From IMG/VR virus record IMGVR_UViG_3300037493_005727, positions 69,091 through 133,090 of that record: a stretch of 64,000 nt of DNA, one strand, 5' to 3'. This stretch comes from a virus. Numbering within the stretch: position 1 is the first letter of the stretch; each line of letters starts with the position of its first letter. Positions 38,886-56,756 of the stretch are shown in pieces. The position numbers were made by a program, and so were the translations under genes. The notes below the pieces were generated by a model, which was given only the letters and a program-made list of their open reading frames with translations, searched no databases and had not been told where the DNA came from.

Positions 38886-39719
38886 ATGAGCGCTATGGAA
38901 AACGACCGCGTTGTCTCAGCGTATTTCGCCGATTTACGCGGTAACTCGTTTGTTCCTCAGAAGGAAGAGTACGACCTTGTTAAGGCGTACAGGACCTGCT
39001 CCTCCTGCCGAGCGTCTTACGCTCTTGGAGCGTCTACCTCCAAGTGCGCCAAGTGCGGGACTCCGCGAAACTTCAAGGCGCGAGATCGCCTGATCTCTGG
39101 CGCCCTGAGATTCGTTGTGAAGCTCGCCAAGGAATACTCCTTTCGAACGAAAGGTCCCAATTTCGATAACGAAGTTCTCACCGCTTTGATCTCCGCGGGG
39201 AATGTAGGGCTACTGGTCGCAGCTGACCGCTTTGACGTGACACGCAATACGAAGTTCTTGACGTACGCGGCTTGGTGGGTTCGAGAGAAGATCCTCGAGG
39301 AGTTGGACAGCCAGGGCATTATTCGCGTGCCCGCCCACAAGCAGAAGGCTCTCCGCGCCCAGCGAAAACACGGCGGAGGTACTGAAGTTGAAGCGCCCCA
39401 CGTCACACTAGATGACGTCGAGGCGATCGATGACGCTGGTCATTGTGAGCAGCGTCTTGAGAAAGATCTCGTCAATACCTACGGCCTTGCGCTGCTCCGC
39501 GCAGCCCTGGATGAGCTCTCGCTTCGTGAGCGAGACAAGTACATCGTCCTGGCGTACTACGGTTCCCGAGAGGAGCCGAAGAATCTTCGACAGATCTCCA
39601 AACGCGTAGACCTCTCCTCGGAACGCGTGCGCCAGATCAAGAAGGACACGATGGACCAGCTCCGCACGTACCTGGCGGCCAATCAAGTATCGGCCACCAG
39701 GGACGTGTTCGCGGAGTAG
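38886..39719 (+). CDS. RNA polymerase sigma factor, sigma-70 family (regions 2-4 only)
   Basis: LISAGNVGLLVAADRFDVTRNTKFLTYAAWWVREKI (region 2.1-2.4). LSLRERDKYIVLAYYG...NLRQISKRVDLSSERVRQIKKDTMDQLR (region 4 HTH). Confidence 0.8.
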   Translation: MSAMENDRVVSAYFADLRGNSFVPQKEEYDLVKAYRTCSSCRASYALGASTSKCAKCGTPRNFKARDRLISGALRFVVKLAKEYSFRTKGPNFDNEVLTALISAGNVGLLVAADRFDVTRNTKFLTYAAWWVREKILEELDSQGIIRVPAHKQKALRAQRKHGGGTEVEAPHVTLDDVEAIDDAGHCEQRLEKDLVNTYGLALLRAALDELSLRERDKYIVLAYYGSREEPKNLRQISKRVDLSSERVRQIKKDTMDQLRTYLAANQVSATRDVFAE

Positions 39720-42435: not shown

Positions 42436-42870
42436 TCAAACCTCATCGTCTTGACTGGTTGGCGCGATATCCGACCACCGACCCGATCGACGGGCCAGCT
42501 TCGGGTTTTCCCTGTCCAGCTGTGCTTCGAGGGCCTTGCTCGTGGCAAGCACGGACGCCGGGTGCACGGCTTCGTCGGACCCTTCTGACCCGTCTCTCCC
42601 GGGAGGCGGCGGTTCATCAGAGGCGTCGGGGTCGTCCCGCTGCCGTACCTCCTCCTTCGGAGCCTCTACCCTCTCTTTCGCGGCTCGACGCGCTGGAGCG
42701 TTGAAAGCGACCACGTTCTCCTCCCTCGGAGGTGCGTCGGTCATGGGGAGCCCGCTGACTTCGATTTCGAACGGGTCTGTTTTGATGATGACCTTCTCCG
42801 GATCGAGCTCAACGTCGAAGTGCTTCCCGAGGATGGCCACGACTTCACTCTTCTCCAAGATCAATCTCAT
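42436..42870 (-). CDS. hypothetical acidic protein
   Basis: 144-aa ORF, ATGA-chained to the helicase gene. Confidence 0.4.
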   Translation of the reverse strand: MRLILEKSEVVAILGKHFDVELDPEKVIIKTDPFEIEVSGLPMTDAPPREENVVAFNAPARRAAKERVEAPKEEVRQRDDPDASDEPPPPGRDGSEGSDEAVHPASVLATSKALEAQLDRENPKLARRSGRWSDIAPTSQDDEV

Positions 42871-44924
42871 GTAAGCACCTTTGCTTTAGCTACGGTTCGT
42901 TTGACGCTGCGCTGATAGATGCACGCGGGGTCGAAGATCTCCACCCCCGCCCGCAGACACCGCTCGTATCGCGGGCAGGTGGCGCAGACGATCTTGTTTG
43001 TCAGCATCGCGCTGAGGTCTCTCTTCTCACTCAAGGCGACGGCCTTGAAGTGGTCTACCGTCCCCGCCGCGATGAGGCGATAGACGAAGGTCTTCATCCG
43101 CTGCCCGGCCCTAAAATTTCTGTCGATGGCTTGAAGGTAGTGTCCCAACGACCATGGCAGAGCGTAGAAGATCATATACGCTGCGGAGTTCAGGGTGATG
43201 CCGACCCCCGTCGCAACATGACTCAAGTAGACGCGGCAGTCAGGCGTCAAGTTGAACTCGTCGATCCGTTTCTGGATGTTCCCTTCGCCGCCACGAACGT
43301 ATCCCAGTTTCTTCTTCTTGAGCAGCTCTTCGATGGCGTCAAGCTCAGCGTGGTACTGCCCCCAGATGATGACCTTCGACTTTTCGTTGGCCAGGATCTC
43401 ATCGAGCAGCCCCTCGAGGGCGTCGAGCTTCGGGTTCTCCTTCAGAGTGTTCAGCAGTCCTGGGGGCGCCTTCTGGACGACCTGACACTTCGCGGTGTAG
43501 GGCTGGATGTTGGAGTCAACGCACTTCACCAGGTGTTCACAGGTGTCGCAGAGGCCCGCTTTTTTCTGGCTGTCGATGATAAACGCCGAAGTCACCTGCG
43601 CCAGCTTGTTGAGGAGCACGGCCGCGTTCTGAACGGCGAGTGTGCTCTCGGAGGTGAAGAACTCCTGGAGGTCCGCGGACATCTCTTCGACCAGCTTGTT
43701 GTAGAGCTTCTTCTGCTCCCCGGAGAGTTCGATGGGGACGTCAATGATCGTACGCGGTGGAAGGTCTAGACACTCTTCCTTCGTCTTACGAATAGCGACG
43801 CGATTGACTCGCTCGTTCAGGATGTTGATGTTCTTGAACCCCGTAACGATTCTCTTGTTGTAGGGGTTCCTGGTTAAGAACATGTCAGAGAACTGAAGCC
43901 AGTCTTCCGGGATGATCGCAGGCGAAAGAAATTTCATCTGGGGATAGAGATGTCGCGGATCCCCCAGTGTCGGAGTCCCCGACATCAGGTACCTTCGCCG
44001 CGCCTTCTTTGATAGCGCTATGGCAGCCTTCGTTTGGTCCGCCCCAGAGTTGTTCAGATTCTGACTTTCATCGGCAGCGATGATCTGGAAGTCGATGTCC
44101 TTCAGCCACTGCGGGCTTTGTTTCGATTCGTCCGCGGCCCACTGGCAAACGTGTTTGATGGGTGCTCCGAGCGCCCAGGCCACTGCGAGCTCGAACTGCC
44201 GCTCGGGGTCCGAAAGAAAGCGTATCCCGTTGACCAACGTCTTGAGTGCGTTGGCGGTCAGCGGAACCCCGTTCTCATTCGCCTCCTTCAACGCTTTGAG
44301 GGTCGCGGGGTAGAGCCTCGGGTGCCCAAGGTTTCGAGCCGTTCCGTAGGAAGCTACGATTACGTCGTACTCCTTGTACCTGCGTATGATCTCCCTTTTT
44401 TGCTCAGGCGTGCCTGTGAGCGCGACCGCTTTGAGCTCACCCCCAGAGTGGAGCGCAGCTTCTCGCACCCAACCGGGAACGGTCACTTTTGGCGTTAGCA
44501 CCAGCATTCTGCTGCCGGGGAAGCACCGCTTCAGGTCGACCATGACCTTGGTCTTTCCGGTCCCGGGATCCCAGTAGAGGGCGAACCGCGGGTAGTTGAC
44601 GAGGTGCGACAGCCCGTCTATCTGGTGGTCGAAGGGCTTGGTGGCGAACGAGAAATGCTCGGGGAGGATGCGTTCTTTCAGCCGCTGTGGTACGTCTTGC
44701 AGCCAGGCAATCTGCTGCTCTGCCTCGGTGGAGAAGGCCACATCCTTCACCACTTTTTTGAGATCCTGTACGGCCAAGAGTCCAAATGGAGGGTAGGCTG
44801 GAAACATCCAACGCTTCTTCTCCACATCCAGACCCCCAGCGTGTACTCTCTCCAGCCCGGGGATCATCCCGGATGAGACGAAGACCGGGGTGCCATTCAC
44901 GGTCTCCAGTGAAATCAGGGGCAT
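42867..44924 (-). CDS. SNF2-family (SF2) helicase
   Basis: LYWDPGTGKT (motif I), IIAADESQNL (DExx box), MSGTPTLGDPRHLYPQMKFL (Snf2 motif III region), and a C-terminal helicase domain ...AGQRMKTFVYRLIAAGTVDH (motif VI-like). Confidence 0.8.
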   Translation of the reverse strand: MPLISLETVNGTPVFVSSGMIPGLERVHAGGLDVEKKRWMFPAYPPFGLLAVQDLKKVVKDVAFSTEAEQQIAWLQDVPQRLKERILPEHFSFATKPFDHQIDGLSHLVNYPRFALYWDPGTGKTKVMVDLKRCFPGSRMLVLTPKVTVPGWVREAALHSGGELKAVALTGTPEQKREIIRRYKEYDVIVASYGTARNLGHPRLYPATLKALKEANENGVPLTANALKTLVNGIRFLSDPERQFELAVAWALGAPIKHVCQWAADESKQSPQWLKDIDFQIIAADESQNLNNSGADQTKAAIALSKKARRRYLMSGTPTLGDPRHLYPQMKFLSPAIIPEDWLQFSDMFLTRNPYNKRIVTGFKNINILNERVNRVAIRKTKEECLDLPPRTIIDVPIELSGEQKKLYNKLVEEMSADLQEFFTSESTLAVQNAAVLLNKLAQVTSAFIIDSQKKAGLCDTCEHLVKCVDSNIQPYTAKCQVVQKAPPGLLNTLKENPKLDALEGLLDEILANEKSKVIIWGQYHAELDAIEELLKKKKLGYVRGGEGNIQKRIDEFNLTPDCRVYLSHVATGVGITLNSAAYMIFYALPWSLGHYLQAIDRNFRAGQRMKTFVYRLIAAGTVDHFKAVALSEKRDLSAMLTNKIVCATCPRYERCLRAGVEIFDPACIYQRSVKRTVAKAKVLT

Positions 44925-45014: not shown

Positions 45015-46745
45015 ATGGCTGACACCCCGAACAACGATGCGATGTCGGCCTTTGACAGAGCCGCCTCCCACCCGAACCCCGCCTTTGACTTTCTCACCGG
45101 ATTCGTTCCGAGGAAGCTCAAAGATCTTTTCAAATGGTGCGAGTACCTGCTGTACAACAGCGCCCACGTCTACGCCGCTCTGCGGAAGTTCGGTGAACTC
45201 GTAGTTACGGACATCGAGTACGGCACTTCCAACGAGGCGCTGCGTCGGAACTACCGACGTCTCTTCGAGAAGACACTAAAGATCAAGAGCGCCCTGTTGA
45301 TGGCCTCCCTAGACAAGCACGTCTACGGAAACCACTTCACGTCGATCTACAAGCCGTTCGTCCGAAGCCTCAAGTGTCCGAAGTGTCAGACGCTTACTTC
45401 GATCAACCACACCGACTACAAGTTCGAGTTGAAGCGTCTCTCTTTCACCTACTTCTGTACGCGCTGCAAGATAGAGGTGAAAGGCGCCGTCGTTGACCGG
45501 AAGATCCTCGCCGCCAGCAAGGTTCACATCATCCGCTGGGACCCCAAGCTGATGGACATCGACTACAACCCGATCACAGGCCAGTCGGTGTACTACTACA
45601 ACATTCCGCAGGACATCAAAGACCAGGTGAAGTCGGGGTCGAAGCACCTCATCAACTCCATGCCGATGGAGTTCCTCGAGAACATCCGGGACAACAAGAC
45701 GTTCCGCTTCGAGAAGGACGCACTGTTCCACATCAAGGTGCCGAGTCCCTCAGGCATCGACCAGCAGTGGGGCTTTCCTCCTCTCGCTTCGACCATCAAG
45801 CTGTTCCTCTACACCTTGGTCCTCCGCAAGGCGAACGAAGCCATCGCACTCGAGCACGTCGTGCCCATGCGCATCCTGCACCCGGCTCAGAACGGCCAGC
45901 AGGACTTCACGCAGATGATTTCTCTCGCCCGCTGGCAGGACGAGATGAAGACGAACATCCGGCGGTGGCGCCGTGACCCGCTACACATCATGATGGCCCC
46001 CGTTGCCCTCGGTGTGTCGAACCTGGGTGGCGACGGTCGAGCGATGCTCACCATCGGCGAGCTCCAGGAAGCAGAGAAGTCCATCATGGCTGCCCTCGGC
46101 ATCCCGCAGGAGTTCCTGTACGGCGGCCTCACTAAGGCAGGCATGGAGGCCACGCTTCGTCTGATTCAGAACCAGACGCAGGGCCACGCCGACGACATGA
46201 ACGACCTGCTCCAGTGGTACGCTGACCAGCTGGCGCGCTTCCTTGGATGGGAGAAGGTCGAGACCAAGCTCACGCAGCTCAAGATGGTGGACGACACCGA
46301 GTCGAAGCAGATGCTCATCAACATGGCGACGGGACAGGCAGGCCAGCAGTACGTCTCGATGACTACGGTGATGGAGAAGCTCGACATCGACCTCGACGAG
46401 GAACGCGAGAAGCGTCTGCAAGAGACTCTCGACGAGACTCGCCACCAGATGCGCGTGCAGAACGAGGTCAAGAAGCTCCAGAACAACCTGGCGCAGCAGG
46501 TCCAGAACCAAGCCAACATGGCTTCCGGTCTCAACTACGACCAGCAGGCAGTCATCGGCCAGGCAGACCAGATCGTGCAGCAGCTCATGGGCCTGGACCC
46601 TGGTTCGCGGCGTTCCCAAATGCACAGCCTCCAAGCCGAGGACGCCGTGATGTACGCAGTCGTCGTGCAGCGGCTCGAGGACATGCAGAACCAACAGGGC
46701 GCACAGGCGAAGGCACAAGCCAACGGCGCTCAGCCCCCGATGTAA
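45015..46745 (+). CDS. putative portal (head-tail connector) protein
   Basis: 576 aa. First gene of the rightward structural block. The Gln/Met-rich C-terminal tail resembles podovirus portal C-termini. Assignment is by architecture and position only. Confidence 0.4.
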   Translation: MADTPNNDAMSAFDRAASHPNPAFDFLTGFVPRKLKDLFKWCEYLLYNSAHVYAALRKFGELVVTDIEYGTSNEALRRNYRRLFEKTLKIKSALLMASLDKHVYGNHFTSIYKPFVRSLKCPKCQTLTSINHTDYKFELKRLSFTYFCTRCKIEVKGAVVDRKILAASKVHIIRWDPKLMDIDYNPITGQSVYYYNIPQDIKDQVKSGSKHLINSMPMEFLENIRDNKTFRFEKDALFHIKVPSPSGIDQQWGFPPLASTIKLFLYTLVLRKANEAIALEHVVPMRILHPAQNGQQDFTQMISLARWQDEMKTNIRRWRRDPLHIMMAPVALGVSNLGGDGRAMLTIGELQEAEKSIMAALGIPQEFLYGGLTKAGMEATLRLIQNQTQGHADDMNDLLQWYADQLARFLGWEKVETKLTQLKMVDDTESKQMLINMATGQAGQQYVSMTTVMEKLDIDLDEEREKRLQETLDETRHQMRVQNEVKKLQNNLAQQVQNQANMASGLNYDQQAVIGQADQIVQQLMGLDPGSRRSQMHSLQAEDAVMYAVVVQRLEDMQNQQGAQAKAQANGAQPPM

Positions 46746-46754: not shown

Positions 46755-47255
46755 ATGCCTCCTCCGAAATCAGACGCCGGGTCCGACTTCGCGTCGGTCC
46801 TCAATGCTGCGATGCAGATCCCTGAGGGGTTCGAGACCAAGGGGACAGACCTTCCTGATGGTTTCCCTCTTCCTCGACAGGGGTCCCACCGGACCGTAGA
46901 CACCACTGACGAGGGGATCCCCGGAGTCACGGCGTTCGACTTCAAGATTCACCGCAAGGTCTTTACTATCTTCCGTCCGTGGGACAACTGTGCCCGCTGC
47001 GGGCAAGATATCGCGGGCGGGGCGGTAACCCTACCGGATAGTGGCGACCACGAGTGTCCGCACACCGCCCTGGACGAGTACGAGACCATCGTCAACGACA
47101 TCCTCGCGGGCAAAATGATCTTCGGATCTGAGCAGGAAATCACGCAGAAGGACGGAAGCGTTCTCGTCTCTCTTCGTTGGTACGAAAAAATTCCGTCGAA
47201 GAAAAAGAAACCGCAAGTCCGTGTGGACGGAACGGTCGAAGAGTCTGATCTCTGA
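46755..47255 (+). CDS. hypothetical protein
   Basis: 166-aa ORF. Confidence 0.45.
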   Translation: MPPPKSDAGSDFASVLNAAMQIPEGFETKGTDLPDGFPLPRQGSHRTVDTTDEGIPGVTAFDFKIHRKVFTIFRPWDNCARCGQDIAGGAVTLPDSGDHECPHTALDEYETIVNDILAGKMIFGSEQEITQKDGSVLVSLRWYEKIPSKKKKPQVRVDGTVEESDL

Positions 47256-48185: not shown

Positions 48186-48194
48186 GGCTATACT
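48186..48194 (+). promoter_or_regulatory. CTATACT box 7 nt upstream of RNAP gene ATG (leaderless-type promoter)
   Basis: aaggGGCTATACTtacggacATG. Confidence 0.45.
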
Positions 48195-48201
48195 TACGGA
48201 C

Positions 48202-51200
48202 ATGGCGCTGACATCCGTGCTCACCGATGCCGAGTCCCGGCGGACTCAAATCCGAGCGAAAGCGCTTGAGGCGCTCCGCGCCGCCTTTCCCTTGCCCCTT
48301 AGGGACAAGCAGATCCAAGTCTCTGATCTGCAGGTCCACCACAAAGACTACGGGCCGAACGACCAGAAGCAGGCGCTGCTCAGCGGCGGATCCCTCTTCG
48401 AGCCCGTCAAGGGGACCATCACTCTTCGAGGCGCTGACGGCAAAGAGATCGAGAAGGTAAAAGGTTTTACCTTGCTCAACCTCCCGTTCTTCACTGGGCG
48501 GCACACCTTCATCTTGGACGGCAACGAGTACAACGTCTCAAACCAGCTCCGTCTGAAGCCGGGCGTGTACACTCGACGGCGAGGAAACGAAGAGCTCGAA
48601 GCGGCCTTCAACCTTTCGAAGGGGGCTAACTTTCGGTTGTCCCTGGACCCCGCCCAAGGGCACCCGTACGTCGAGTACGGAACTACCGCCATTCCGCTTT
48701 ACTCAGTATTGCGGAAGTTGGGAGTCCCGCACGCAGACATCTCGTCGCACTGGGGATCCGATGTAGCGGGGCAGAACGAGGCTGCGTTCGCAGGGAAGCA
48801 CGACAAGCACCTCGCCAAGCTCTACGAGAAAGTGACGCATCCGTCCAAGCGCACGGCCACCAACCCTGAGACGCAACTAGAGGCAGTGCGCGCCGCTTAC
48901 GCTGCGACCGCGATGGACCCTGAGGTCAACAAGGAGACTCTGGGGCACGAGTTCTCGTCGGTCACCCCTCAGGCGCTGCTGGTTGCGTCGAAGCGCCTCC
49001 TCAACGTCTACAAGAACAACGCCCCTGTAGATGATCGTGACGCTCTGCAATTCAAGACCTATCACTCGGTCGACGACTTCATCAAAGAGCGCATCACTCT
49101 CGACGCCCGAGCCCTGGCCAGCAAGGTGAAAGGGCGGGCGACGCACAAGACCGGGCTCCGAGAAATCCTCCCGTCGTCGCCTTTCTCTGGTGGCATCCGG
49201 AGCTTCCTCACCGGCTCACAGCTGAGCTCGATTCCGACGCACATCAACCCGATGGAGGCCATTGATCACGCCGTTAGGGTTACTTCTCTGGGTGAAGGCG
49301 GCATTGCCAACGAACGGGCAATCCCCGCAGAAGCCCGAACCATCCACTCAAGCCATCTCGGTATCCTGGACCCGATTCGTACCTCAGAGTCGTTCCGTGC
49401 AGGCATCGACATCCGTACGGCATTCGGGGCTCATCGGGATGAGCGAGGGAATCTGTACACGATGGTAAAGGATGTGAAAACAGGTAAGGGGGTCATGCTC
49501 TCGGCGTCTGAGATGTCTAGCGCCGTGGTGGCATTCCCGAAGCAGAAGATGTCTGGGATGATCGCCGCGATGGACAAGGGAGAAGTCGCTCACGTCCCTG
49601 CGTCCAAGGTGACCCACGAACTCTACGACGCTGCTCAGCTCTACTCTCCCGCGACGAACCTCGTACCCTTCCTCGAGTCTGTTCAGGGGAACCGTGGAAT
49701 CATGGGCGGCAAGGTTCAGACGCAGGCTCTACCGCTCGTTCACAGAGAAGCTCCCCTCGTACAGTCGGGGGTCTCTTCATCGGACAAGAACGGACAAAGC
49801 ATCAGCTGGGAGCGGCAGCTCGCTCACCTCGCGCTCCCCGTTTCTCCCGTTGCAGGGAAGGTAGTGAAGATCGACGGGCAGTACATCTACATCGACCCGT
49901 CTGGGAAGAAGCACGCTGAGGACTTCGGGATCGAGAAGAACTCGTTCGAGAAGCGCGGCGGGGCAGTCAAACGACAGAAGACCATCAAAGGACTTTGCTT
50001 CAAGCTTGAGCTCGAGCCTGGAGACATCCGCTCTGGCGTATCCCCCGAAGGTAAGAAGTGGGAGAAGAAGATGTCCCTCGCCTACGGGCACATTCCCAAG
50101 ACGGTTGGGGATGACGGCGAGACCGTAGACATCTACTTGAAGGAAGATGGCGTCTTCGATCACGTGTACGTTGTTCGTCAGAAGAAGCGCGACGGATCAC
50201 ACGATGAAGATAAGTGCATGGTGGGGTTCGACTCGAAGGACGCCGCGAAAGACGCCTACGAGAAGCACGGACCGGAATGGGGTTACGGGTCGTTGGAAGA
50301 GTATACCTGGGATGAGTTCCAGGACGACTACCTTTCAGAGCGGCAGCGCGAGAAGGCCGCTGCTGAGAAGGATCTCGTACGCGTTCCGTATGACAGCAAC
50401 TTGCCTTTCGCGTCCAAGACCTATCTACACCACGATCTCTTAGTGAAGCCGGGGGACCACGTCACCGCTGACCAGCATCTCGCTGAGTCCAACTTCACGC
50501 GGGACGGCGCCTTTGCTCTGGGCCGCAACATGACCATCGGGTACATCCCTTACTACGGGATGAACTCGAACGACGCTGTCGTCATTTCGGAGGGCGCTGC
50601 GGACAAGCTCACGTCTGAGCACATGTACAAGGAGATCGTTGAAGTCGAGAGGGACGCAATCGTGGGGCGCGACGTCCACCAGCAGTACTACGGGCCCAAG
50701 TACACCGCGGAACAGTACCGCAAGCTCGACGCCAACGGCGTAGTACGCAAGGGCATGAAGGTGATGCCTCACGACATCCTGATCGCCGGAGTTACCAAAG
50801 GAAAACTTTCCGCGTCAGACGCCCTGCTAGGCAACCTGAAGAAGACTCTGGTTCACCCCTATCGCGAGCTCGTTCGCACCTGGGATCACGACTACGAGGG
50901 GGACGTCATCGACGTGCACGTCACAGACAAGCGCGTCGTGGTGACCGTTAGGACGAAAGAGCCGATGCGCGTCGGCGACAAGCTCACGGGACGGCACGGA
51001 AACAAGGGCGTTGTTTCCATGATCGTACCGGACCACAAGATGCTTCAGGATGAGAAGGGTAAGCCGCTCGAGGTGCTCTACACCTCAGCAGGCGTCATCT
51101 CGCGTATCAACCCGGCGCAGATTCTTGAAACGGTGGTAGCCAAGGTCGCCAAGAAGATTGGGAAGCCCATCATCGTTGAGAACTTCTCGGGGAGGGACAA

Positions 51201-53016
51201 CGTGCAGTGGGCGAAGGACTTGCTCAAAGAGCACGGGGTCAAGGACAAGGAAACGCTTTTCGACCCTGTCTCTGGGAAGAAGATCCCCGGCATTCTGGTT
51301 GGGCCGCAGTTCGTGCTCCGCTTGTTCAAAACCACGGAGACTAACTTCGCAGCCCGCGGCACGGGGGCCTACGACGTCAACCAGCAGCCCATCAAAGGCG
51401 GAGACGAGGGCGCAAAGGCCGTCGGCAAGATGGAGTTCAATGCACTGGTTGCGCACAACGCCCGTAACGTGCTGCGAGAGACAGCGACGATCAAGAGTCA
51501 GAAGAACGACGAGTTCTGGCGCTGCGTCCAGTTGGGGCTACCGCTCCCTCCGCTGAAGTCTTCGTTCGCCTACGACAAGTTCGTGGGAATGCTCCACGGG
51601 GCAGGAGTGAAAGTGGACACCCGGGGGAGTGTGAGCACTCTGTCTCCTTTGACGGACCACGACATCCTGAAGATGTCCTCCGGCGCGATTCAGAACGAGA
51701 AGCTGGTTCGGGCCAAGGATCTCGCCCCTGAGCGCGGAGGCTTGTTCGACCCGGCGGTGACGGGCGGGACCGTCGGTACCCGCTGGAGCCACATCGAGCT
51801 CGCCGAGCCCATCATCAACCCCATCTTCGCTGACCCCGCTCGCCGTTTGCTCGGGATGACGTTGAAGGAGTTCGACAAGTTTCACCACGACAATGGTGGG
51901 GCGCAGATCAAGAAAAAGCTAAACGCCATCAACGTGAGTGGGCGTATCGACGAGCTGCGGAGCTCCATCAAGAAGTTGAACGGGGTGAAGCTCGACGACG
52001 CAGTGAAGCAGCTCAAGTTCCTAGAGGCTCTGCACCGGCAGAAGCTCCAGCCTGGGGACGCCTACGTGCTGTCCAAGCTCCCAGTTCTGCCTCCGCTCAT
52101 GCGTCCGATCCTCCCAGGAAAGAGCGGGTCTGAGCTCGTCGTAGGGGATTCGAACTACCTCTACCAGAGCGCCATGCTCCACAACCGCTCACTCCAGCGG
52201 CAGGTCGACTCTCCTGTTCTCCCCCCCGATGAGCACGCCAAGCTGCGGCAGAATCTCTTCAACGCAGTGGGCGCCGTCGTCGGAACGCACGAGTCCGACA
52301 ACCCCAAGCTCTTGAAGCGCAACGTGAAGGGTCTGCTCGAGCACCTCACGGGGAAGACGACTCCGAAGAGCAGCTACTTCCAGAAGAAGATCATGAAGCG
52401 GCAGCAGGACATCTCCGGGCGCGGAACCATCGCTCCTGACGGGTCCTTGGGCATGGACGAGATCGGTCTCCCAGAAGACATGCTCTGGGGGATGTACGGG
52501 AAGTTCGTAATCGCTCGTTTGGTTCGTCGAGGCTTTGGCGCCGTCGCTGCGAAGGAGATGGTGGAGAAGAAGCACCCCGCGGCGCACGACGCGCTGATGG
52601 CCGAGCTCAAAGAACGCCCCGTGATGGTGAACCGCGCCCCCACACTGCATCGGTACGGCTTTGTTGGCGCCAACCCTGTGCCCGTGGCGGGTAAGACGAT
52701 CCGGGTGAACCCCTTCATCGAGCTCGGAATGAACGCCGACTATGACGGCGACACCTTCCAGATTCACGTCCCAGTTCTTCCTGGGGCCGTGCAAGAGGTG
52801 AAGGGGATGACTCTCTCCAATCTTCTCTTCTCTGACCGAGAGAAGGATAGCTTGATGGTCGCTCCCCGCATGGAGGCTATGCTAGGAGTTCACCTGGCTT
52901 CCAAAGCAGAAGGATCTGCCAACGGGCAGACTCACAAGTACAAAACGAAGGCGGACGCCATGGCAGCATACAAACGTGGTGAGATCACGCTCAGCTCGAA
53001 GGTAGAGGTAGGCTAA
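48202..53016 (+). CDS. fused multisubunit RNA polymerase beta subunit + N-terminal half of beta' subunit
   Basis: 1604 aa. Beta: ...SLGEGGIANERAIPAEARTIHSSHLGILDPIRTSESFRAGIDIRTA, LVPFLESVQGNRGIMGGKVQTQALPLV, MRVGDKLTGRHGNKGVVSMI, GKMEFNALVAHNARNVLRETATIKSQKND. Beta'-N: HIELAEPIINPIF, MVNRAPTLHRYGF, NADYDGDTFQIHVPV (the catalytic Mg triad). The usual N-terminal beta' zinc-finger cysteines are absent. Confidence 0.9.
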   Translation: MALTSVLTDAESRRTQIRAKALEALRAAFPLPLRDKQIQVSDLQVHHKDYGPNDQKQALLSGGSLFEPVKGTITLRGADGKEIEKVKGFTLLNLPFFTGRHTFILDGNEYNVSNQLRLKPGVYTRRRGNEELEAAFNLSKGANFRLSLDPAQGHPYVEYGTTAIPLYSVLRKLGVPHADISSHWGSDVAGQNEAAFAGKHDKHLAKLYEKVTHPSKRTATNPETQLEAVRAAYAATAMDPEVNKETLGHEFSSVTPQALLVASKRLLNVYKNNAPVDDRDALQFKTYHSVDDFIKERITLDARALASKVKGRATHKTGLREILPSSPFSGGIRSFLTGSQLSSIPTHINPMEAIDHAVRVTSLGEGGIANERAIPAEARTIHSSHLGILDPIRTSESFRAGIDIRTAFGAHRDERGNLYTMVKDVKTGKGVMLSASEMSSAVVAFPKQKMSGMIAAMDKGEVAHVPASKVTHELYDAAQLYSPATNLVPFLESVQGNRGIMGGKVQTQALPLVHREAPLVQSGVSSSDKNGQSISWERQLAHLALPVSPVAGKVVKIDGQYIYIDPSGKKHAEDFGIEKNSFEKRGGAVKRQKTIKGLCFKLELEPGDIRSGVSPEGKKWEKKMSLAYGHIPKTVGDDGETVDIYLKEDGVFDHVYVVRQKKRDGSHDEDKCMVGFDSKDAAKDAYEKHGPEWGYGSLEEYTWDEFQDDYLSERQREKAAAEKDLVRVPYDSNLPFASKTYLHHDLLVKPGDHVTADQHLAESNFTRDGAFALGRNMTIGYIPYYGMNSNDAVVISEGAADKLTSEHMYKEIVEVERDAIVGRDVHQQYYGPKYTAEQYRKLDANGVVRKGMKVMPHDILIAGVTKGKLSASDALLGNLKKTLVHPYRELVRTWDHDYEGDVIDVHVTDKRVVVTVRTKEPMRVGDKLTGRHGNKGVVSMIVPDHKMLQDEKGKPLEVLYTSAGVISRINPAQILETVVAKVAKKIGKPIIVENFSGRDNVQWAKDLLKEHGVKDKETLFDPVSGKKIPGILVGPQFVLRLFKTTETNFAARGTGAYDVNQQPIKGGDEGAKAVGKMEFNALVAHNARNVLRETATIKSQKNDEFWRCVQLGLPLPPLKSSFAYDKFVGMLHGAGVKVDTRGSVSTLSPLTDHDILKMSSGAIQNEKLVRAKDLAPERGGLFDPAVTGGTVGTRWSHIELAEPIINPIFADPARRLLGMTLKEFDKFHHDNGGAQIKKKLNAINVSGRIDELRSSIKKLNGVKLDDAVKQLKFLEALHRQKLQPGDAYVLSKLPVLPPLMRPILPGKSGSELVVGDSNYLYQSAMLHNRSLQRQVDSPVLPPDEHAKLRQNLFNAVGAVVGTHESDNPKLLKRNVKGLLEHLTGKTTPKSSYFQKKIMKRQQDISGRGTIAPDGSLGMDEIGLPEDMLWGMYGKFVIARLVRRGFGAVAAKEMVEKKHPAAHDALMAELKERPVMVNRAPTLHRYGFVGANPVPVAGKTIRVNPFIELGMNADYDGDTFQIHVPVLPGAVQEVKGMTLSNLLFSDREKDSLMVAPRMEAMLGVHLASKAEGSANGQTHKYKTKADAMAAYKRGEITLSSKVEVG

Positions 53017-53636
53017 TGGCTCGTTACAAGATCGCTGCAGGCGCTGGGTTCGATGCCGCGTACGCTGAAGCGGAACAGGCGCAGGCCCCCGAGGCTCAGC
53101 CCGCTGGGGAGGTGGAATCTGCGGTTCAGCCCCCGCAGCCCACTGCCTCTGAGGGGGTTCACCCGCTGGCCGTGTCCCCGGAGGAAGGGTTGTTCGCAGT
53201 TCCTCAGGAGAAGGTCGTCGGCCAGTGCGTGAAGCTGCTCAAGCTCAAGTACACGATGATGATGATGTACATCAACTACGGTGACCGGATCCGGGCGCAT
53301 TTCCGGGACGTCATCTACGACCACTTCAAAGAGCACGCCGACGAAGAGCGTCAGGACGCCTACCACCTGACGATGAAGATCACGGCGTTGGGCGGGGAGC
53401 CCACTCCGAAGGTGAGCACCATCCCCGACATCAACGACCTGCACCAGATGTTCATGGCTCTTCTTCAGGCGGAGAAGCAGATCATCCAGGAGCTGCGGAA
53501 CCTGTCCCTCATGGCGGGGGAGAATTTGTCACTCAAGGTCATGCTCGAGCAGATGGTCTTCACGGATCAGCAGCACGCGGACGATTTGCGTCGGATGATG
53601 TTCTGCGAAGGAGGCGGCGGTGGAACCGTTCCTTAA
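53016..53636 (+). CDS. ferritin-like four-helix-bundle protein
   Basis: FKEHADEERQDAYHL and MLEQMVFTDQQHADDL give paired E...E-x-x-H-like motifs on predicted helices. Start overlaps the RNAP stop (TAATG). Confidence 0.45.
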   Translation: MARYKIAAGAGFDAAYAEAEQAQAPEAQPAGEVESAVQPPQPTASEGVHPLAVSPEEGLFAVPQEKVVGQCVKLLKLKYTMMMMYINYGDRIRAHFRDVIYDHFKEHADEERQDAYHLTMKITALGGEPTPKVSTIPDINDLHQMFMALLQAEKQIIQELRNLSLMAGENLSLKVMLEQMVFTDQQHADDLRRMMFCEGGGGGTVP

Positions 53637-53778
53637 ACAGGCGTACGAAGAAGGCCAACGCGCCGCGGCAGAAGAGCTTGACCAAAAACTGAAGGACGCC
53701 GTCAAGAAGCGAAAGACGTCGGTGGGCTGGAAAGAGGACTCCGTAGCACCCAACCGATTGTCCAGCGTGAACAAGTAA
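53620..53778 (+). CDS. small hypothetical protein (52 aa, GTG start, below track cutoff)
   Basis: Read by hand: GTG 53620 after GAAGGAGG, VEPFLKQAYEEGQRAAAEELDQKLKDAVKKRKTSVGWKEDSVAPNRLSSVNK, stop TAA 53776-53778. Confidence 0.35.
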   Translation: MEPFLKQAYEEGQRAAAEELDQKLKDAVKKRKTSVGWKEDSVAPNRLSSVNK

Positions 53779-53791
53779 CCTAGGCTCTGCC

Positions 53792-54082
53792 ATGATGAAT
53801 CTTGCGTACCAAGAGGGGAAAGCTCGTGCGGAGGAGGATTTCGGTCTTCGCACGGCCGCTGATGCGTATCAGCGGGGTATCCCTCACGGGGATCAGCGCC
53901 TGCCTGTTGAGCGCTTCGCCAAACATCTCTCTACGATGGACCCGGAAGTCGGCCCCTTGCCGGATGAGCGTAAGAAGCGTTTTGGCAACCCGGTGCGTTG
54001 GGGCGGAGTCACCTCCCCGTATGGAACGGGCGCGCAGTCGAACGACTACTCTAACATTGGACCAGACCAGGCGGCGATATGA
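53792..54082 (+). CDS. hypothetical protein (MxxLAY family, copy 1)
   Basis: MMNLAYQEGKA.... Its N-terminus is paralogous to the next ORF (MISDLAYKSGA...). Confidence 0.45.
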   Translation: MMNLAYQEGKARAEEDFGLRTAADAYQRGIPHGDQRLPVERFAKHLSTMDPEVGPLPDERKKRFGNPVRWGGVTSPYGTGAQSNDYSNIGPDQAAI

Positions 54083-54483
54083 TCAGTGACCTTGCGTACA
54101 AATCGGGCGCCTCTGCGGCCTGGGGAACTTTCATGAAATCTTCGGGCGCCACACCACGTGCGGCCATTCACAGCTTTACGCCTAAGCCCAAACTCGGTAC
54201 CCCCGCTGGTGCGCCACTCGGCGCTGTCGGGTCCCCCGTCGCCCCAGCCCCCGCCGCAGCAGTAGCTCCTCCCGCCGCCGCCGCTCCTCCTGTCGCGCCC
54301 ATCAAGGGCGGCGCCGCCGCTCCGGCAGCAGCGCCAGCAGCGGCAGCGCCCGCAGCAGCAGCCGCGGGTGGGGGTTGGAAGGGGTTCGCACGGGACGCCG
54401 CCGTTCAGATGGCCGTCCCTATCGGGATGATGGGTCTCCAGAAAATCATGGAGCCGTCGCAAAAAGATCCGAACGCCACCTAA
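54079..54483 (+). CDS. Ala/Pro-rich hypothetical protein (MxxLAY family, copy 2)
   Basis: 134 aa with a long poly-Ala/Pro linker. ATGA overlap with the previous ORF. Confidence 0.45.
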   Translation: MISDLAYKSGASAAWGTFMKSSGATPRAAIHSFTPKPKLGTPAGAPLGAVGSPVAPAPAAAVAPPAAAAPPVAPIKGGAAAPAAAPAAAAPAAAAAGGGWKGFARDAAVQMAVPIGMMGLQKIMEPSQKDPNAT

Positions 54484-54489
54484 GGTCTT

Positions 54490-56289
54490 ATGGCGCAAAC
54501 TCTCGGCAAGTACCTTGTAAACGATCTCCTTCCCACCAAGCATCACATCACGGGGACGTTGAACAAGAAGGAGTTCCAGCAGAAGATGCTGGCACTCGCG
54601 CAGGAAGACCCCGCCGGGTACGTCGAGATCGTTTCCAAGCTGAAGTCTCTGGGTGACGACATCTCTACGCTGGAGGGCATCTCAGTAGGGTTGGACGACA
54701 TCACCCCGGCGTACAAATCCCGCGATGCCATCATGGCGCCGGGAATCGCCGCGATGAAGAACGCTGTCGGGCGTGACGCCAAAGAGAAGATCATTCTCGA
54801 CGTACAAAAGAGAATGCTCGAGCACACCAAGGTACACCCGGGGTCAATGACGGCGATGGCGCTCTCTGGGGCGCGTGGAAACATTCCCCAGCTGATGAAG
54901 ACCATCGCATCCCCAGTTGCTACGACTACGGGGAAGGGGGACATCAACCCCTGGCTCATCAGTCGGTCGTACGCCGAGGGCCTCTCCGCGGCTGACCACT
55001 GGGCCGCAGGAAACGAAGCTCGACACAACACCGTCCAGACGTACACCGCCATCGCGGAGCCTGGCGACATGTCGAAGGTCATGACCAACAATATGTACCC
55101 GATGGTCATCACCAAGGACGACTGCGGCACGCACAACGGTTTGGCGATGGACAGTCACGACGGAAACATCGTCGACCGGTACCTTTCACGGGATCAGGCC
55201 GGATACCACCGGAACGACGTCGTGACGAAAGCCGTCGCCTCCAAACTCCAGGCCAAGGTGAAGAAGGTCTACGTCCGCTCACCCATGACTTGCGACGCCA
55301 CCGACGGGATCTGCCGCAAGTGCCAGGGGCTTGATGAGCGGGGGCGCCCTCACGCGATCGGCGTCAACGTTGGCGTTCGAGCTGCTCAATCTATCTCCGA
55401 GCCTCTGACCCAAATGGCTCTCGGGGCCAAGCACGGAATGCGCGTCTTGAAGGGCGCGTCGCCCAAACTGGAAGGCATCGCTGGCATCCGTCAGCTCCTG
55501 GAAGTTCCTCAGAGCTTCATCAACAAGGCGCCTCTAGCTGAACACGCGGGTACGGTGACTAAGATCGTTCCTGCGTCCCATGGCGGAACGCACGTCTACG
55601 TGGACGCGGTGCAGCACTACGCTGGTCCTAACTTGAAAATCCTGGTAACCCCGGGACAGAAAGTCGAGGCAGGCGATGTCCTCTCAGAAGGGATCCCGAA
55701 GCCAGATGAGCTCATTCACCACAAGGGTTTTGGTGCGGGACGACAGTACCTCGTGGACACACTTCATGACATCTATTCCGGTCAAGGAATCAACGTCGAC
55801 AAGCGGCACCTTGAGCTGGTCGCCCGCGCAGACCTCAACCACGTCAAAATTCTCGAGCATTCGGATGAGCACCCTGAGCTCGTAAAGGGGGAGACGCTCC
55901 CCTATTCCACGTACCGTGATGCGGCGCGGAGTCGCAACAAGCTGCTCCCCTTGGCCCAAGCGGAAGGCGCTGTACTCGGTAAAGAGGTTCTTCACTTCAC
56001 CGTAGGTACTCGACTGTCTTCCTCCGTCATCAACACCCTTCGGGCACACGACATCAAGGAAGTTGAAGCGACGTCAACGCTCCCGAGAGTTGAGTTTCTG
56101 ATGCGCCCGATGGCGCGAAATCCTCTCCTGCATCCGGACTGGATGGCGCGACTGGCGCACCGGTACCTGAAAGACAGCCTGCTGCAGGGAGCCCGAACGG
56201 GCGCGGCATCAGACCGCCACAGCACGCACCCAGTACCCGCCTATGCTTACGGCGCTGAATTCGGGATCGGACCTGAGGGGCACTACTGA
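54490..56289 (+). CDS. RNA polymerase beta' subunit, C-terminal half
   Basis: ALSGARGNIPQLMKTI...YAEGLSAADHWAAGNEARHN...VITKDDCGTHNGL aligns with E. coli beta' GARG...FREGL...HGARKG...TEDDCGT (bridge-helix/F-loop region). The downstream trigger-loop-like G-rich segment is also present. Confidence 0.85.
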   Translation: MAQTLGKYLVNDLLPTKHHITGTLNKKEFQQKMLALAQEDPAGYVEIVSKLKSLGDDISTLEGISVGLDDITPAYKSRDAIMAPGIAAMKNAVGRDAKEKIILDVQKRMLEHTKVHPGSMTAMALSGARGNIPQLMKTIASPVATTTGKGDINPWLISRSYAEGLSAADHWAAGNEARHNTVQTYTAIAEPGDMSKVMTNNMYPMVITKDDCGTHNGLAMDSHDGNIVDRYLSRDQAGYHRNDVVTKAVASKLQAKVKKVYVRSPMTCDATDGICRKCQGLDERGRPHAIGVNVGVRAAQSISEPLTQMALGAKHGMRVLKGASPKLEGIAGIRQLLEVPQSFINKAPLAEHAGTVTKIVPASHGGTHVYVDAVQHYAGPNLKILVTPGQKVEAGDVLSEGIPKPDELIHHKGFGAGRQYLVDTLHDIYSGQGINVDKRHLELVARADLNHVKILEHSDEHPELVKGETLPYSTYRDAARSRNKLLPLAQAEGAVLGKEVLHFTVGTRLSSSVINTLRAHDIKEVEATSTLPRVEFLMRPMARNPLLHPDWMARLAHRYLKDSLLQGARTGAASDRHSTHPVPAYAYGAEFGIGPEGHY

Positions 56290-56291
56290 CC

Positions 56292-56756
56292 ATGCGCGAT
56301 CTGAGCCACAGGGCGGGCGTTACCGCGGCGCTGCGAGATTTCGCGGTGGCCAAGTACGCCGGATTCTGGGGCGATGTCGCGTCGTCCGCCCGTCACCAAG
56401 CGTTCGGGCAGCCTGGTGAAGCGCTAAAACAGATTCGCGCCGGGACTCTGTTCAACCCTGAGACGGGGCTGTATCACCACGGGCTTCCCAGATCGCTTGG
56501 AGGTCTAGCAGGCAATCTCGCTGTGCCTCTGGCGCTGACCGCGTTGTTCGCAAAGATGCATCCTGAGGGAAGCCGGGGAGAACTCATCGGCGATATGATT
56601 GGTAGGACGACGGGATCTTTGCTAGGAGCTCCTTTGTTTGGAGCTGTAGGTCAAGTAGGTGGCGGTATGTTGCTTTCGAATGTCGGTCGTGCCCTCGGGC
56701 GCCAATATGACTTGGCGTCAGCACCGCGTAATTCAGAGGTTGCGTCTGAAGAGTGA
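56292..56756 (+). CDS. Gly-rich hypothetical protein
   Basis: 154-aa ORF directly after the beta'-C stop. Confidence 0.4.
   Translation: MRDLSHRAGVTAALRDFAVAKYAGFWGDVASSARHQAFGQPGEALKQIRAGTLFNPETGLYHHGLPRSLGGLAGNLAVPLALTALFAKMHPEGSRGELIGDMIGRTTGSLLGAPLFGAVGQVGGGMLLSNVGRALGRQYDLASAPRNSEVASEE

Follow-up and report, generated by a model that had tools for sequence, protein, structure and literature searches.

The window analysed here, a 64,000-nucleotide stretch of the IMG/VR virus record IMGVR_UViG_3300037493_005727, carries two RNA polymerase genes on its plus strand. The first (48202..53016) encodes a 1604-aa protein in which a complete beta subunit continues, in one chain, into beta' residues about 18-551 (E. 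coli numbering). Pfam models RNA_pol_Rpb2_3 (aa 347-397, E 2e-6), RNA_pol_Rpb2_6 (aa 758-1066, E 3e-49), RNA_pol_Rpb1_1 (aa 1149-1257, E 3e-10) and RNA_pol_Rpb1_2 (aa 1470-1536, E 3e-16) matched this protein, as did PDB entries for bacterial beta (E 3e-66) and bacterial beta' (E 8e-46). A preliminary description of this DNA had read the ORF as beta joined to the N-terminal blocks of beta', and every motif that it quoted was found in its place, starting at residues 364 (GEGG), 388 (ILDP), 497 (NRG), 930 (GRHGNKG), 1077 (MEF), 1477 (NRAPTLHR) and 1511 (NADYDGD). By alignment to Salmonella RpoB, K927 and K935 in the beta active-site segment GDKLTGRHGNKG (50974..51009, plus strand, aa 925-936) are the counterparts of K1065 and K1073 in E. 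coli beta, and D926, K927, G930, N934, K935 and G936 are invariant in an alignment of relatives (A1). The catalytic Mg-binding motif NADYDGD (52732..52752, plus strand, aa 1511-1517) corresponds to E. coli beta' 458-464; its DYDGD/DFDGD core is invariant across the family, and in all 121 aligned members a single chain retains both a beta motif of the GRxGNKG type and DxDGD. The beta' clamp helices, the docking site for sigma, are also retained.

The second gene (54490..56289, plus strand), here called beta'C, encodes 599 aa spanning E. coli beta' from residue about 552/572 to the C-terminus, and matched Pfam RNA_pol_Rpb1_5 (E 1e-18) and beta' structures in the PDB (E 5e-35). As had been proposed, it supplies the bridge helix and the trigger loop, with the trigger-loop His aligned to H936. 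Alignment to bacterial subunits also bore out the supposed lack of lineage-specific insertions, SI1, SI2 and SI3 being absent. At the level of sequence, these results demonstrate that the two genes specify a phage-made RNA polymerase catalytic core of the bacterial type, with its catalytic residues kept. As read from its genes, the enzyme is made of two proteins instead of five, one of them with a built-in predicted pyrophosphatase.

The same layout occurs in Salmonella phage Arash (gp206/gp216) and in three Vibrio phages (0261/0264 in D69). In all 67 relatives with enough flanking sequence, beta'C is a separate gene on the same strand, 561-5726 bp downstream, and the match to it begins at residues 1-5 except in Arash (residue 46); this invariance indicates that the split point is not an artefact. 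Residue 31 of the window beta'C aligns with residue 20 of cyanobacterial RpoC2 (8gzg_Z). In E. coli numbering, the phage split (551/572) precedes the cyanobacterial rpoC1/rpoC2 boundary (about 583) by about 10-30 residues, close to where the preliminary description had put it.

Multiple alignment with Salmonella and S. aureus RpoB and RpoC mapped the beta/beta' junction to 51619..51639 (plus strand, aa about 1140-1146). There is no linker: the beta C-terminus passes directly into beta' residue about 18, with a loss of about 3 beta and 17 beta' residues. The junction is identical in Arash and in a related set, found as 405 matching stretches in IMG/VR, in which the whole of beta-beta' is one chain of about 2000 aa. 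Shortly downstream (51760..51783, plus strand), the beta' zinc-binding domain is gone, E. coli beta' 68-99 being missing with no Cys4 left, and this deletion is common to split and fully fused relatives. The preliminary description had overlooked the deletion, the fully fused set and the pyrophosphatase insert described below. Some relatives contain canonical inteins (Cys ... GN followed by Ser/Thr) in conserved segments, including the GRHGNKG site, and some have an intein-like insert within NADYDGD; inteins in such segments are expected of a functional gene.

Four small genes separate the two polymerase genes, as first noted. One (53016..53636, plus strand, 206 aa) encodes a ferritin-like protein (Pfam Ferritin, E 2.5e-11) that is not a core polymerase part; its start overlaps the stop of the fused gene (TAATG), and only 16 of 81 related loci have a homologue at this position. 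The others are ORF calls on the same strand (53620-53778, 53792-54082 and 54079-54483), and the second is one of a family of small proteins whose genes lie in this interval in 34 loci. Upstream, and also on the plus strand, lies a portal-protein homologue (45015..46745), identified through its tblastn match to gp204 of Arash, a virion-detected protein with a portal annotation; the window protein has no Pfam or PHROG match of its own. The reported proximity of polymerase and portal is general, the portal preceding the polymerase gene on the same strand in 80/81 split-set and 64/80 fully fused loci (144/161 in total). Between them is a small conserved gene (46755..47255, plus strand, 166 aa, CxxC...CxH), whose profile detected homologues in 72/81 split-set loci but in no locus of the fully fused set. 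A SNF2-family helicase (42867..44924, minus strand; Pfam SNF2-rel_dom and Helicase_C) is transcribed divergently from the portal gene and is present in 70/81 loci; in Arash, a second SNF2 helicase, gp217, directly follows beta'C and is abundant in virions. The sigma factor announced at 38886..39719 (plus strand, 277 aa) was confirmed by Pfam Sigma70_r2 and r4. It is the ortholog of Arash gp196 (43% identity over an 89-residue stretch of region 2), its region 2 is closest to SigB/SigA/RpoS, and a sigma homologue lies ≤10 kb away in 47-48 of the 81 split-set loci. The intergenic regions yielded no promoter consensus.

The beta portion contains a type-I inorganic pyrophosphatase (InPase) domain (PF18823; 49966..50325, plus strand, aa 589-708, E 8.5e-31). 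The whole insert occupies aa 567-736 in a beta loop at E. coli beta about 737-760, a site that in relatives holds two InPase domains, InPase plus AAA_18, a GNAT domain or nothing, and that may thus serve as a cargo slot; a GNAT domain is also found at the beta'C C-terminus among relatives. In PHROG, the insert matched minor head, virion structural and DarB-like proteins, and InPase domains of its type also occur at portal C-termini (Pa193 portal). The available part of PMC5512222 (Iyer et al. 2017) describes the same domain type in polyvalent virion proteins, proposing that it is injected and clears pyrophosphate to favour early transcription/replication. There it resides in multi-domain effectors or on portals, whereas here it lies inside a polymerase subunit; of the phage RNA polymerases, that part lists only the N4-like virion enzyme among polyvalent-protein domains. 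A pyrophosphatase tethered to the enzyme, with an activity predicted from its fold, would remove the pyrophosphate product and favour RNA synthesis. Alternatively, the insert could be a structural module re-used from portal or head proteins instead of a working pyrophosphatase, for example an anchor inside the capsid or near the portal, or a signal for packaging. Its nearest PDB-file sequence lies in the C-terminal tail of the Pa193 portal protein, a tail that is flexible and unmodelled, Glu replaces the canonical second Asp of DxDxxD, and many relatives lack the InPase insert, making it dispensable for transcription. We nevertheless consider a purely structural role unlikely.

The possible virion association raised in the preliminary description finds backing in the proteomics of Arash, whose fused protein is 37% identical to that of the window. 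In mass spectrometry of Arash virions, gp206 ranked first among all proteins by number of spectra (128 unique peptides, 3516 spectra); gp216, the beta'C protein (40 peptides, 1210 spectra), and the sigma factor gp10 (24 peptides, 467 spectra) were detected as well (PMC10585845). The cultured relative thus appears to pack its polymerase into virus particles. These data, the conserved portal linkage and the virion- and portal-type InPase insert lead us to infer that the window's own phage does likewise, by extrapolation from the Arash homologue. The enzyme could instead be a non-virion polymerase, synthesised after infection to transcribe middle or late genes, with its place in the structural module being incidental and its detection in Arash a carry-over. 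The Arash list of 116 proteins includes ribonucleotide reductases, DNA ligase and primase, its authors allow for carry-over or co-purification of abundant proteins, and gp196, the ortholog of the window sigma, is absent from it (PMC10585845); a search for a counterpart of the gp10-type virion sigma in the window's clade traced none. However, metabolic enzymes in that list mostly have 2-3 peptides (PMC10585845), against the strong signals of gp206, gp216 and gp10. The portal linkage is moreover conserved across two divergent sets, and the insert is of a type found in virion and portal proteins. We therefore regard a solely post-infection enzyme as improbable.

No RpoA or RpoZ Pfam family was found among the 72 window ORFs scanned, in agreement with the earlier reading, and a text search of the Arash paper returned 'alpha' only for ribonucleotide reductase. 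We propose that the covalent beta-beta' tether would replace the alpha dimer as assembly platform, with beta'C docking non-covalently. A hybrid enzyme, in which the phage proteins, once expressed or delivered, recruit the alpha dimer and omega of the host, and perhaps its sigma, would also account for the missing genes; the core aligns to bacterial beta/beta' over most of its length, and alpha is needed by all cellular polymerases (PMC7598289). Yet phiKZ and AR9 polymerases work without alpha and omega (PMC7598289), and covalent fusion is an obvious alternative assembly route. Furthermore, the fused protein is only about 28-30% identical to bacterial beta/beta' and its best PDB matches show no preferred bacterial phylum, which makes a conserved host-specific alpha interface across Salmonella and Vibrio unlikely. 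A hybrid is consequently quite doubtful.

In IMG/VR, 228 loci encode relatives of the fused protein. The longest contigs of the set measure about 180-197 kb, and the window's region shows synteny with Arash and Vibrio D69, both cultured phages, all in keeping with the phage origin first assigned to these genes. That they are host rpoB-rpoC DNA (a chromosome fragment, a recent capture or a frameshifted chimeric mis-assembly), the refutation named in the preliminary description, has only a general similarity to bacterial beta and beta' in its favour and is excluded for practical purposes by the presence of the fused gene in 81/81 related loci examined, the same layout in cultured phages, the low identity to bacterial subunits, the phage genes around it (portal, terminase, DNA polymerase A, primase) and a search of 185,579 genomes of bacteria and archaea that found no relative of the fused protein. 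On sequence grounds, the fused-then-split architecture is thus fixed across a widespread set of phage contigs. In a neighbour-joining tree, which has a distant outgroup of two sequences and moderate support only, 80 split-type sequences form one group (bootstrap 136/200), and 20 fully fused sequences are ungrouped against the bacterial outgroup (13/200). This rough tree suggests that the beta' split is secondary, on a fully fused ancestor, and it may have arisen at the same permissive inter-domain loop as in cyanobacteria and phiKZ-like phages.

The arrangement had been thought to match none that could be named. It is in fact already present in deposited cultured-phage genomes, where the genes are annotated merely as 'beta subunit' or 'hypothetical', but we found no published description of the fused-then-split architecture or of its phage polymerase family. 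The phiKZ/AR9-like phages likewise encode beta/beta' homologues without alpha and omega, and in them the beta' split falls directly behind the catalytic double-psi beta-barrel, where cyanobacteria have theirs (PMC7598289); the statement that they are differently fragmented is therefore wrong for the beta' split site, which falls in the same region as here. They also package one polymerase set in the virion and have a genomically linked SNF2 helicase (PMC7824862), and the accessory phosphohydrolase (HD) domain on a beta fragment of AR9 virion polymerases resembles the InPase insert. In contrast, their beta is cut into 2-3 pieces, whereas here it is intact and fused to beta'N; they have virion and non-virion sets, whereas a single set was detected per genome here; and phiKZ-like phages lack the sigma-70-family factors (PMC7824862) that the present phages encode. 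The window enzyme is also much nearer to bacterial polymerases (PDB beta, E 3e-66) than to the PHROG families that carry the annotation phage RNAP beta subunit (E 2e-25 and weaker), which we take to be the phiKZ-like ones.

Near-canonical beta and beta' of metagenomic tailed phages are also known from mReC (Weinheimer and Aylward 2020, PMC7481178), where they are detectable by the cellular COG0085/COG0086 models, stand apart from cellular lineages and sit among structural genes, as here. For mReC, PMC7481178 Supplementary Data 2 gives a beta of 1000-1490 aa and a beta' of 890-1390 aa, each with an unsplit gene of its own, and that paper makes no mention of their fusion or splitting. The mReC capsid protein is PF07068 (T4 gp23 type), whereas that of Arash (307 aa) has no Pfam match, and the available part of the PMC7481178 lists contained no contig that could be recognised as one of the window's set.

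Cyanobacterial and plastid beta' is divided into RpoC1 (gamma) and RpoC2 (beta') in the linker after the catalytic barrel, as here, but cyanobacterial beta is unfused and beta' has a very large SI3, whereas the phage beta is fused and SI3 is absent. Head-to-tail fusions of RpoB and RpoC in one polypeptide occur in Helicobacter and Wolbachia and have been engineered in E. coli, showing that tethering is compatible with function. They keep alpha, omega, a linker and an unsplit beta', whereas the window enzyme has a direct junction followed by a split beta'. The fully fused phage forms are their closer analogue. The N4-like, crAss-like (phi14:2 gp66) and P23-45 virion polymerases are large enzymes, packaged in capsid or tail and delivered with the DNA, that start transcription. 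N4 vRNAP is of the T7 type, and crAss gp66 and the P23-45 enzyme each have two barrels in a single chain. The latter two are too divergent for beta/beta' models (PMC7481178), in contrast with the recognisable full-length homologue in the window, which probably uses sigma.

Taken together, the system is most likely a sigma-dependent polymerase without alpha and omega, covalently tethered, packed into the capsid and delivered together with the DNA, and we consider this explanation as a whole, including the InPase role and the secondary split, to be a likely one. Sigma dependence is suggested by the linked sigma-70-family gene and the retained clamp helices, and phage sigma factors would select the promoters. 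The genome may hold another, highly diverged polymerase set elsewhere; Arash and the Vibrio phages each have one matching place per genome. The enzyme would be packaged next to the portal and, once delivered, would start early transcription independently of the host polymerase; because it is the only polymerase set detected in the cultured relatives, the same core probably serves later transcription too, with a second sigma.

The preliminary description of the window had assigned a bacterial-type RNA polymerase to two genes, one fusing beta to the N-terminal part of beta' (beta-beta'N) and one encoding the rest of beta' (beta'C). Both ORFs are real (48202-53016, + strand, 1604 aa; 54490-56289, + strand, 599 aa). 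Profile-HMM searches with Pfam models identified in the longer one the beta domains Rpb2_3 (aa 347-397) and Rpb2_6 (aa 758-1066, E 3e-49), together with the beta' domains Rpb1_1 (aa 1149-1257) and Rpb1_2 (aa 1470-1536) in that same chain, and in the shorter one Rpb1_5 (E 1e-18). All the signature motifs originally quoted were located in these ORFs, and the two genes are separated, as claimed, by four small ORFs, the first of which is ferritin-like and has a start overlapping the stop of the fused gene (TAATG). Sequence searches against the PDB matched the 1604-aa protein to bacterial beta (E 3e-66) and beta' (E 8e-46), and the 599-aa protein to bacterial beta' (E 5e-35). Since the best matches, spanning Firmicutes, cyanobacteria, Deinococcus-Thermus, actinobacteria and proteobacteria, score alike, no bacterial phylum is favoured for the window polymerase.

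We aligned the concatenated window proteins with those of the cultured Salmonella phage Arash, three relatives carrying the whole of beta and beta' in one chain (hereafter, fully fused) and RpoB plus RpoC of Salmonella, Acinetobacter and S. aureus, these bacterial sequences being taken from contaminated 'phage' records; positions follow E. coli numbering. The segment GDKLTGRHGNKG (aa 925-936) corresponds to E. coli beta 1063-1074, with the GRHGNKG segment present, and K927 and K935, equivalent to E. coli beta K1065 and K1073, are invariant across the family. The NADYDGD Mg-binding motif (aa 1511-1517) corresponds to E. coli beta' 458-464, and its DYDGD triad is retained. Also retained are, in beta'C, GARGN and the bridge-helix region, which align with bacterial beta', and the trigger-loop His (H936), as well as the beta' clamp helices, which dock sigma region 2; their segment VKQLKFLEAL aligns with E. 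coli TKRIKLLEAF, the sigma docking site by alignment. The window proteins almost certainly constitute a catalytically competent polymerase core. No Pfam match to RpoA or RpoZ was obtained among the 72 ORFs scanned in the window, which is part of the genome, in agreement with the earlier remark that neither alpha nor omega is recognisable there.

At aa ~1142, the beta C-terminus (...GVKVDTRG) runs straight into beta' residue ~18 without a linker, at a cost of ~3 beta and 17 beta' residues. The beta' zinc-binding domain (68-99) is deleted, and beta 1125-1178 and the lineage-specific inserts SI1 (beta ~229-351), SI2 (beta ~938-1049) and SI3 (beta' 943-1130) are also missing, the absence of such inserts having been anticipated. 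The fused chain stops at beta' 551 and beta'C picks up at ~552/572; an 18-residue E. coli hairpin at the split point is absent in the phage. Residue 31 of beta'C aligns with residue 20 of cyanobacterial RpoC2, and the cyanobacterial boundary therefore lies ~10-30 residues downstream. The proposed closeness to the rpoC1/rpoC2 split holds, both boundaries falling in the same linker with this offset. As a whole, the structural reading first put forward is borne out and extended.

A protein search recovered 654 relatives of the fused protein at E <= 1e-20. Among the 120 matches listed, all but a 949-aa fragment are fused (1436-2480 aa), many of them on contigs of 170-197 kb, and a GRxGNKG-type beta motif, NRAPxLHR and DxDGD occur in one chain in 121 of 121 aligned sequences. 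In IMG/VR, relatives were found at 228 loci, 80 of which were fetched. Flanks were long enough to assess beta'C at 67 loci, and at every one it is a separate gene on the same strand, 561-5726 bp downstream (median 1518 bp; 1.5 kb in the window). The fused gene ends at query residue 1602-1604 in all 67, bar three intein-containing loci in which the strongest match stops at 1518-1523, and beta'C starts at residue 1-5, bar Arash (match from residue 46). That the arrangement reflects host DNA or a mis-assembly of bacterial rpoBC, the risk noted in the preliminary description, can be dismissed, given the same split layout in these 67 loci and in cultured phages; a pattern scan of 185,579 bacterial and archaeal genomes yielded no relative of the fused protein. 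Megablast of the 8-kb region against phage genomes gave no match, relatives being visible only at the protein level. As a separate observation, several records filed as phage (OR844998, OR846602, CAKLQH020000005, AFYI01000006 and others) are bacterial chromosome fragments with secE-nusG-rplKAJL-rpoBC, and produce spurious 'phage RNA polymerase' matches.

The polymerase is one of a large family. Some of its members are in culture, and their genes have already been deposited, though incorrectly or incompletely annotated. In Arash, gp206 (1525 aa, annotated as 'RNA polymerase beta') directly follows the portal gene gp204 and the small gp205, and beta'C corresponds to gp216 (606 aa); Vibrio phages D69, D181 and D148 contain both polymerase genes, labelled hypothetical. 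The conserved gene order comprises sigma (+), ParB (-), a PD-(D/E)XK nuclease (-), an SNF2 helicase (-), portal (+), a small gene of 166 aa and beta-beta'N, then variable small genes, beta'C and a conserved set of genes matched in Arash by genes for virion proteins. Across the family, the polymerase genes are accompanied by an SNF2-family helicase gene (noted, besides the window and Arash, in loci L125, L128, L134, L135, L141 and L153). In the window (42867-44924, - strand), as in its clade, the helicase gene is upstream and divergent; in Arash (gp217, 23091-24509 of the fetched locus L001) it comes directly after beta'C, and at 16 of 80 fully fused loci it is downstream.

The variable small genes include a family represented by 53792-54082, whose 43 members, spread over 34 related loci, invariably lie on the + strand between the polymerase genes. 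We considered its product as a universal small subunit; the gene immediately precedes beta'C in only 10 of 67 loci, so the product is not a fixed partner. Comparison by eye of the small ORFs 53792-54082, 53620-53778, 54079-54483 and 56292-56756 and the N-terminus of 56856-58130 disclosed an N-terminal A-Y/F-x-x-G-...-A motif in several of them, while other small-protein relatives begin with MPFKSQAQRR. These proteins could reside inside the head or be accessories of the polymerase.

With beta'C as query, an exhaustive HMMER search returned 1106 cluster representatives (E <= 1e-30); 21 of the best 150 are 1993-2876 aa long and end in beta'C. Two of them, P0185 and P0202, contain Rpb2_3, Rpb2_6, Rpb1_2, Rpb1_4 and Rpb1_5 in one chain (P0185 also Rpb1_1) and, unlike the window, have a beta' running unbroken to the C-terminus. 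P0185 alone, as a query, had no match in IMG/VR; an alignment of 13 fully fused proteins matched 405 stretches. Of the 80 fully fused loci fetched, 76 encode the whole enzyme in a single ORF (at least 1990 aa, median 2068) and 64 have a portal homologue upstream; the contigs reach 189 kb. Fully fused forms show the same direct junction and zinc-domain deletion, and are continuous across the split point. Relatives of beta'C of ~1000 aa were also considered as unsplit beta'; P0187, the only one examined, proved to be beta'C enlarged by a LAGLIDADG intein.

We then compared both types by neighbour-joining on the beta'C region, using unambiguous sequences only, so that truncated ORFs were not mixed with true split forms; two bacterial beta' sequences had enough coverage to pass the filter and served as outgroup. 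All 80 split-type sequences (the window, Arash and D69 among them) fell into one group (bootstrap 136/200), while the 20 fully fused sequences did not group against bacterial beta' (13/200). Because split forms group while fully fused ones do not, fusion looks like the family trait and the split like a single later event in the window's branch, with the moderate confidence that a rough tree affords.

Further interruptions occur within the family. In D181 (locus L084, 8923-14437) an insert of ~950 bp with a homing-endonuclease gene, either intron-like or a further split, breaks the fused gene after ~514 codons; its close relative D69 (locus L085, 8923-13506) has an intact 1527-aa fused gene. 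D181 illustrates how gene breaks of this kind can arise. Canonical inteins (N-terminal Cys, C-terminal GN then Ser/Thr) are found after RTPE (396), before GRHGNKG (928) and after TTPK (1389), and an intein-like insert of 466-542 aa, with LAGLIDADG and intein-splicing Pfam matches, lies within DYDG|D (1516); positions are window residues, and the inserts are distributed among the relatives P0009, P0014, P0015, P0020, P0031, P0034, P0055, P0080 and P0087.

The preliminary description overlooked an insert of 170 residues between GKVVKIDGQYIYID (beta 723-736) and NLPFASKTYLHH (beta ~757-765). Its core (aa 589-708) corresponds to the Pfam domain InPase (PF18823, E 8.5e-31), and matches the type-I pyrophosphatase fold. 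The acidic residues E603, D637, E640, D643, D668 and E669, predicted from sequence to occupy metal-ligand positions, are conserved in at least 90% of 54 insert-bearing relatives, as are K622 and K671; the second canonical Asp is a Glu. In PHROG the insert matched minor head, virion structural and DarB-like proteins, and its nearest PDB-file sequence is the tail of the Pa193 portal protein, C-terminal to the portal barrel and without density. Iyer et al. (PMC5512222) report InPase of this type in phage polyvalent proteins, proposed to be injected and to clear pyrophosphate, favouring early transcription or replication. This slot in the beta loop is variably occupied. Among the matches listed, 51 of 120 relatives carry one InPase domain there; P0002 has two, P0079 has InPase plus an AAA_18 kinase-like domain, P0067 and three others have a GNAT acetyltransferase, and the slot is empty in forms of ~1450-1480 aa and in Arash, whose gp206 is abundant in virions. 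The C-terminus of some beta'C relatives likewise bears a GNAT domain or an uncharacterised extension of 340-800 aa. In its logic, such cargo resembles polyvalent virion proteins.

Virion mass spectrometry of Arash (PMC10585845) placed gp206 at the top in spectra (128 unique peptides, 3516 spectra), and also detected gp216 (40 peptides, 1210 spectra), the abundant SNF2 helicase gp217 (38 peptides, 1148 spectra) and the sigma factor gp10, encoded among structural genes (24 peptides, 467 spectra); a second sigma, gp196, is absent from the virion list. The preparation also held metabolic enzymes, and its authors raise possible carry-over (PMC10585845). A sigma-70-family gene is present in the window at 38886-39719, where it had been reported, with Sigma70_r2 and r4 Pfam matches. 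Its product is the ortholog of gp196 (43% identity over 89 residues of region 2) and shows no similarity to Arash gp10; region 2 is nearest to that of group 1/2 sigmas, with the TYAxWW segment retained. A single-protein scan for gp10-type sigmas, a highly divergent family of 24 members, gave close Arash relatives only and none in the window's clade. The window sigma also has an N-terminal CxxC...CxxC zinc-ribbon-like segment at aa ~38-58 (CSSCRASYALGASTSKCAKCG), the polymerase itself being without the beta' zinc-binding domain.

The fused protein matches one place only in each cultured genome (Arash and the Vibrio phages). This single polymerase set, along with two sigmas in Arash, one of them in virions, suggests that one core enzyme may be delivered with one sigma and later reprogrammed by another. 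No promoter consensus emerged from exact k-mers common to 31 intergenic regions, and a sigma-70 consensus scan of 44800-58400 found 0 sites versus 2.3 expected. What we infer about function decreases in strength from virion delivery through sigma dependence and alpha independence to the role of the pyrophosphatase.

Outside the polymerase region, the gene content is typical of a large lytic phage. The window encodes a class II ribonucleotide reductase with a TSCPD domain, VapE-like and PrimPol proteins, a GpA-type large terminase, a family A DNA polymerase, two PD-(D/E)XK nucleases and ParB (genes at 6153-8879 (-), 10684-13771 (-), 30536-32191 (+), 33883-36798 (-), 36844-37659 (-), 39720-40685 (-) and 41533-42435 (-)). 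A scan of 42 ORFs within 1-42000 additionally revealed RuvC and SNase matches, a RyR domain (4265-5014) and a small ORF with the dATP/dGTP diphosphohydrolase N-terminal domain (PF18909, E 2.5e-34), which may be linked to nucleotide-pool manipulation or base modification. Behind a reverse transcriptase gene (22520-23716, - strand; RVT_1, E 1e-16) comes an ORF of 430 aa (21231-22523, - strand) whose transposase-like match is weak; a diversity-generating retroelement was rejected, with no template/variable repeat pair within 19000-25500. The adjacent small genes 19109-19513 and 19533-19898 (+ strand) are paralogous, sharing a 57-nt segment with 72% identity (19256-19312 and 19647-19703).

The polymerase is a variant within the phage multisubunit RNA polymerases, an already known class. 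Membership in the multimeric-RNAP-encoding Caudovirales (mReC) was rejected on architecture: their near-canonical beta (1000-1490 aa) and beta' (890-1390 aa) are separate and unsplit (PMC7481178), in contrast to the 1604-aa fusion plus 599-aa beta'C of the window, the distinction being drawn from listed protein sizes. They also have the T4-type capsid protein PF07068 (PMC7481178), whereas the capsid protein of Arash, gp226, has no Pfam match. For six of the longer contigs with relatives, the IMG sample ID occurs in the mReC tables only as a reference row for capsid and terminase trees. In Helicobacter-type fusions the beta C-terminus is likewise covalently joined to the beta' N-terminus, but beta' is continuous there, and not continued in a separate beta'C gene. 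The phiKZ/AR9 polymerases are similar in having no alpha or omega, in virion packaging (here only in Arash proteomics), in SNF2 linkage, which in this family recalls the RapA-like helicase linkage of phiKZ-like phages, and in their beta' split, located at the cyanobacterial site (PMC7598289); AR9 also has an accessory phosphohydrolase on its polymerase. They differ in having beta in two or three polypeptides instead of one continuous beta fused to beta'N, two paralogous sets (virion and non-virion) and no sigma, as opposed to one set in cultured relatives and sigma genes, and far more divergent sequences. Neither a beta-beta'N fusion with separate beta'C nor a polymerase-embedded pyrophosphatase is described in the mReC paper, the jumbo-phage reviews, the polyvalent-protein paper or the Arash paper, and full-text searches of a literature that takes in few subscription journals brought up no such description.

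The family amounts to ~630 matching IMG/VR stretches (228 plus 405), Arash and three Vibrio phages. Its split branch has a retained sigma docking site and a linked sigma, with a second sigma in the virion proteome of the cultured member Arash, and some members have enzymes inside a polymerase subunit; we found no described polymerase with such a mix in the literature searched. A broader and rather doubtful reading is that this large, apparently undescribed family (in the literature searched) replaces the universal alpha platform with the beta-beta' fusion and delivers from the virion a sigma-programmed holoenzyme with enzymatic cargo (pyrophosphatase, acetyltransferase, kinase-like domain) into the host, and that, because the beta' fission site is common to both, the split branch might be a surviving intermediate on the way from a single-chain ancestor to the fragmented phiKZ/AR9 type. 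The system is accessible to experiment, being present in culture in Salmonella phage Arash and in Vibrio phages, and its compact core (~2000 aa in one or two chains), together with a sigma of its own, could find use as an orthogonal transcription tool. Two questions about phage multisubunit polymerases are open (PMC7598289): their assembly in the absence of alpha, and the origin of the fragmented phiKZ-type enzymes. To the first, a direct beta-beta' tether, in enzymes still alignable residue by residue with bacterial ones, offers a testable answer; and, with unsplit and split states both in the family, fission at the cyanobacterial/phiKZ site can be compared between close relatives.
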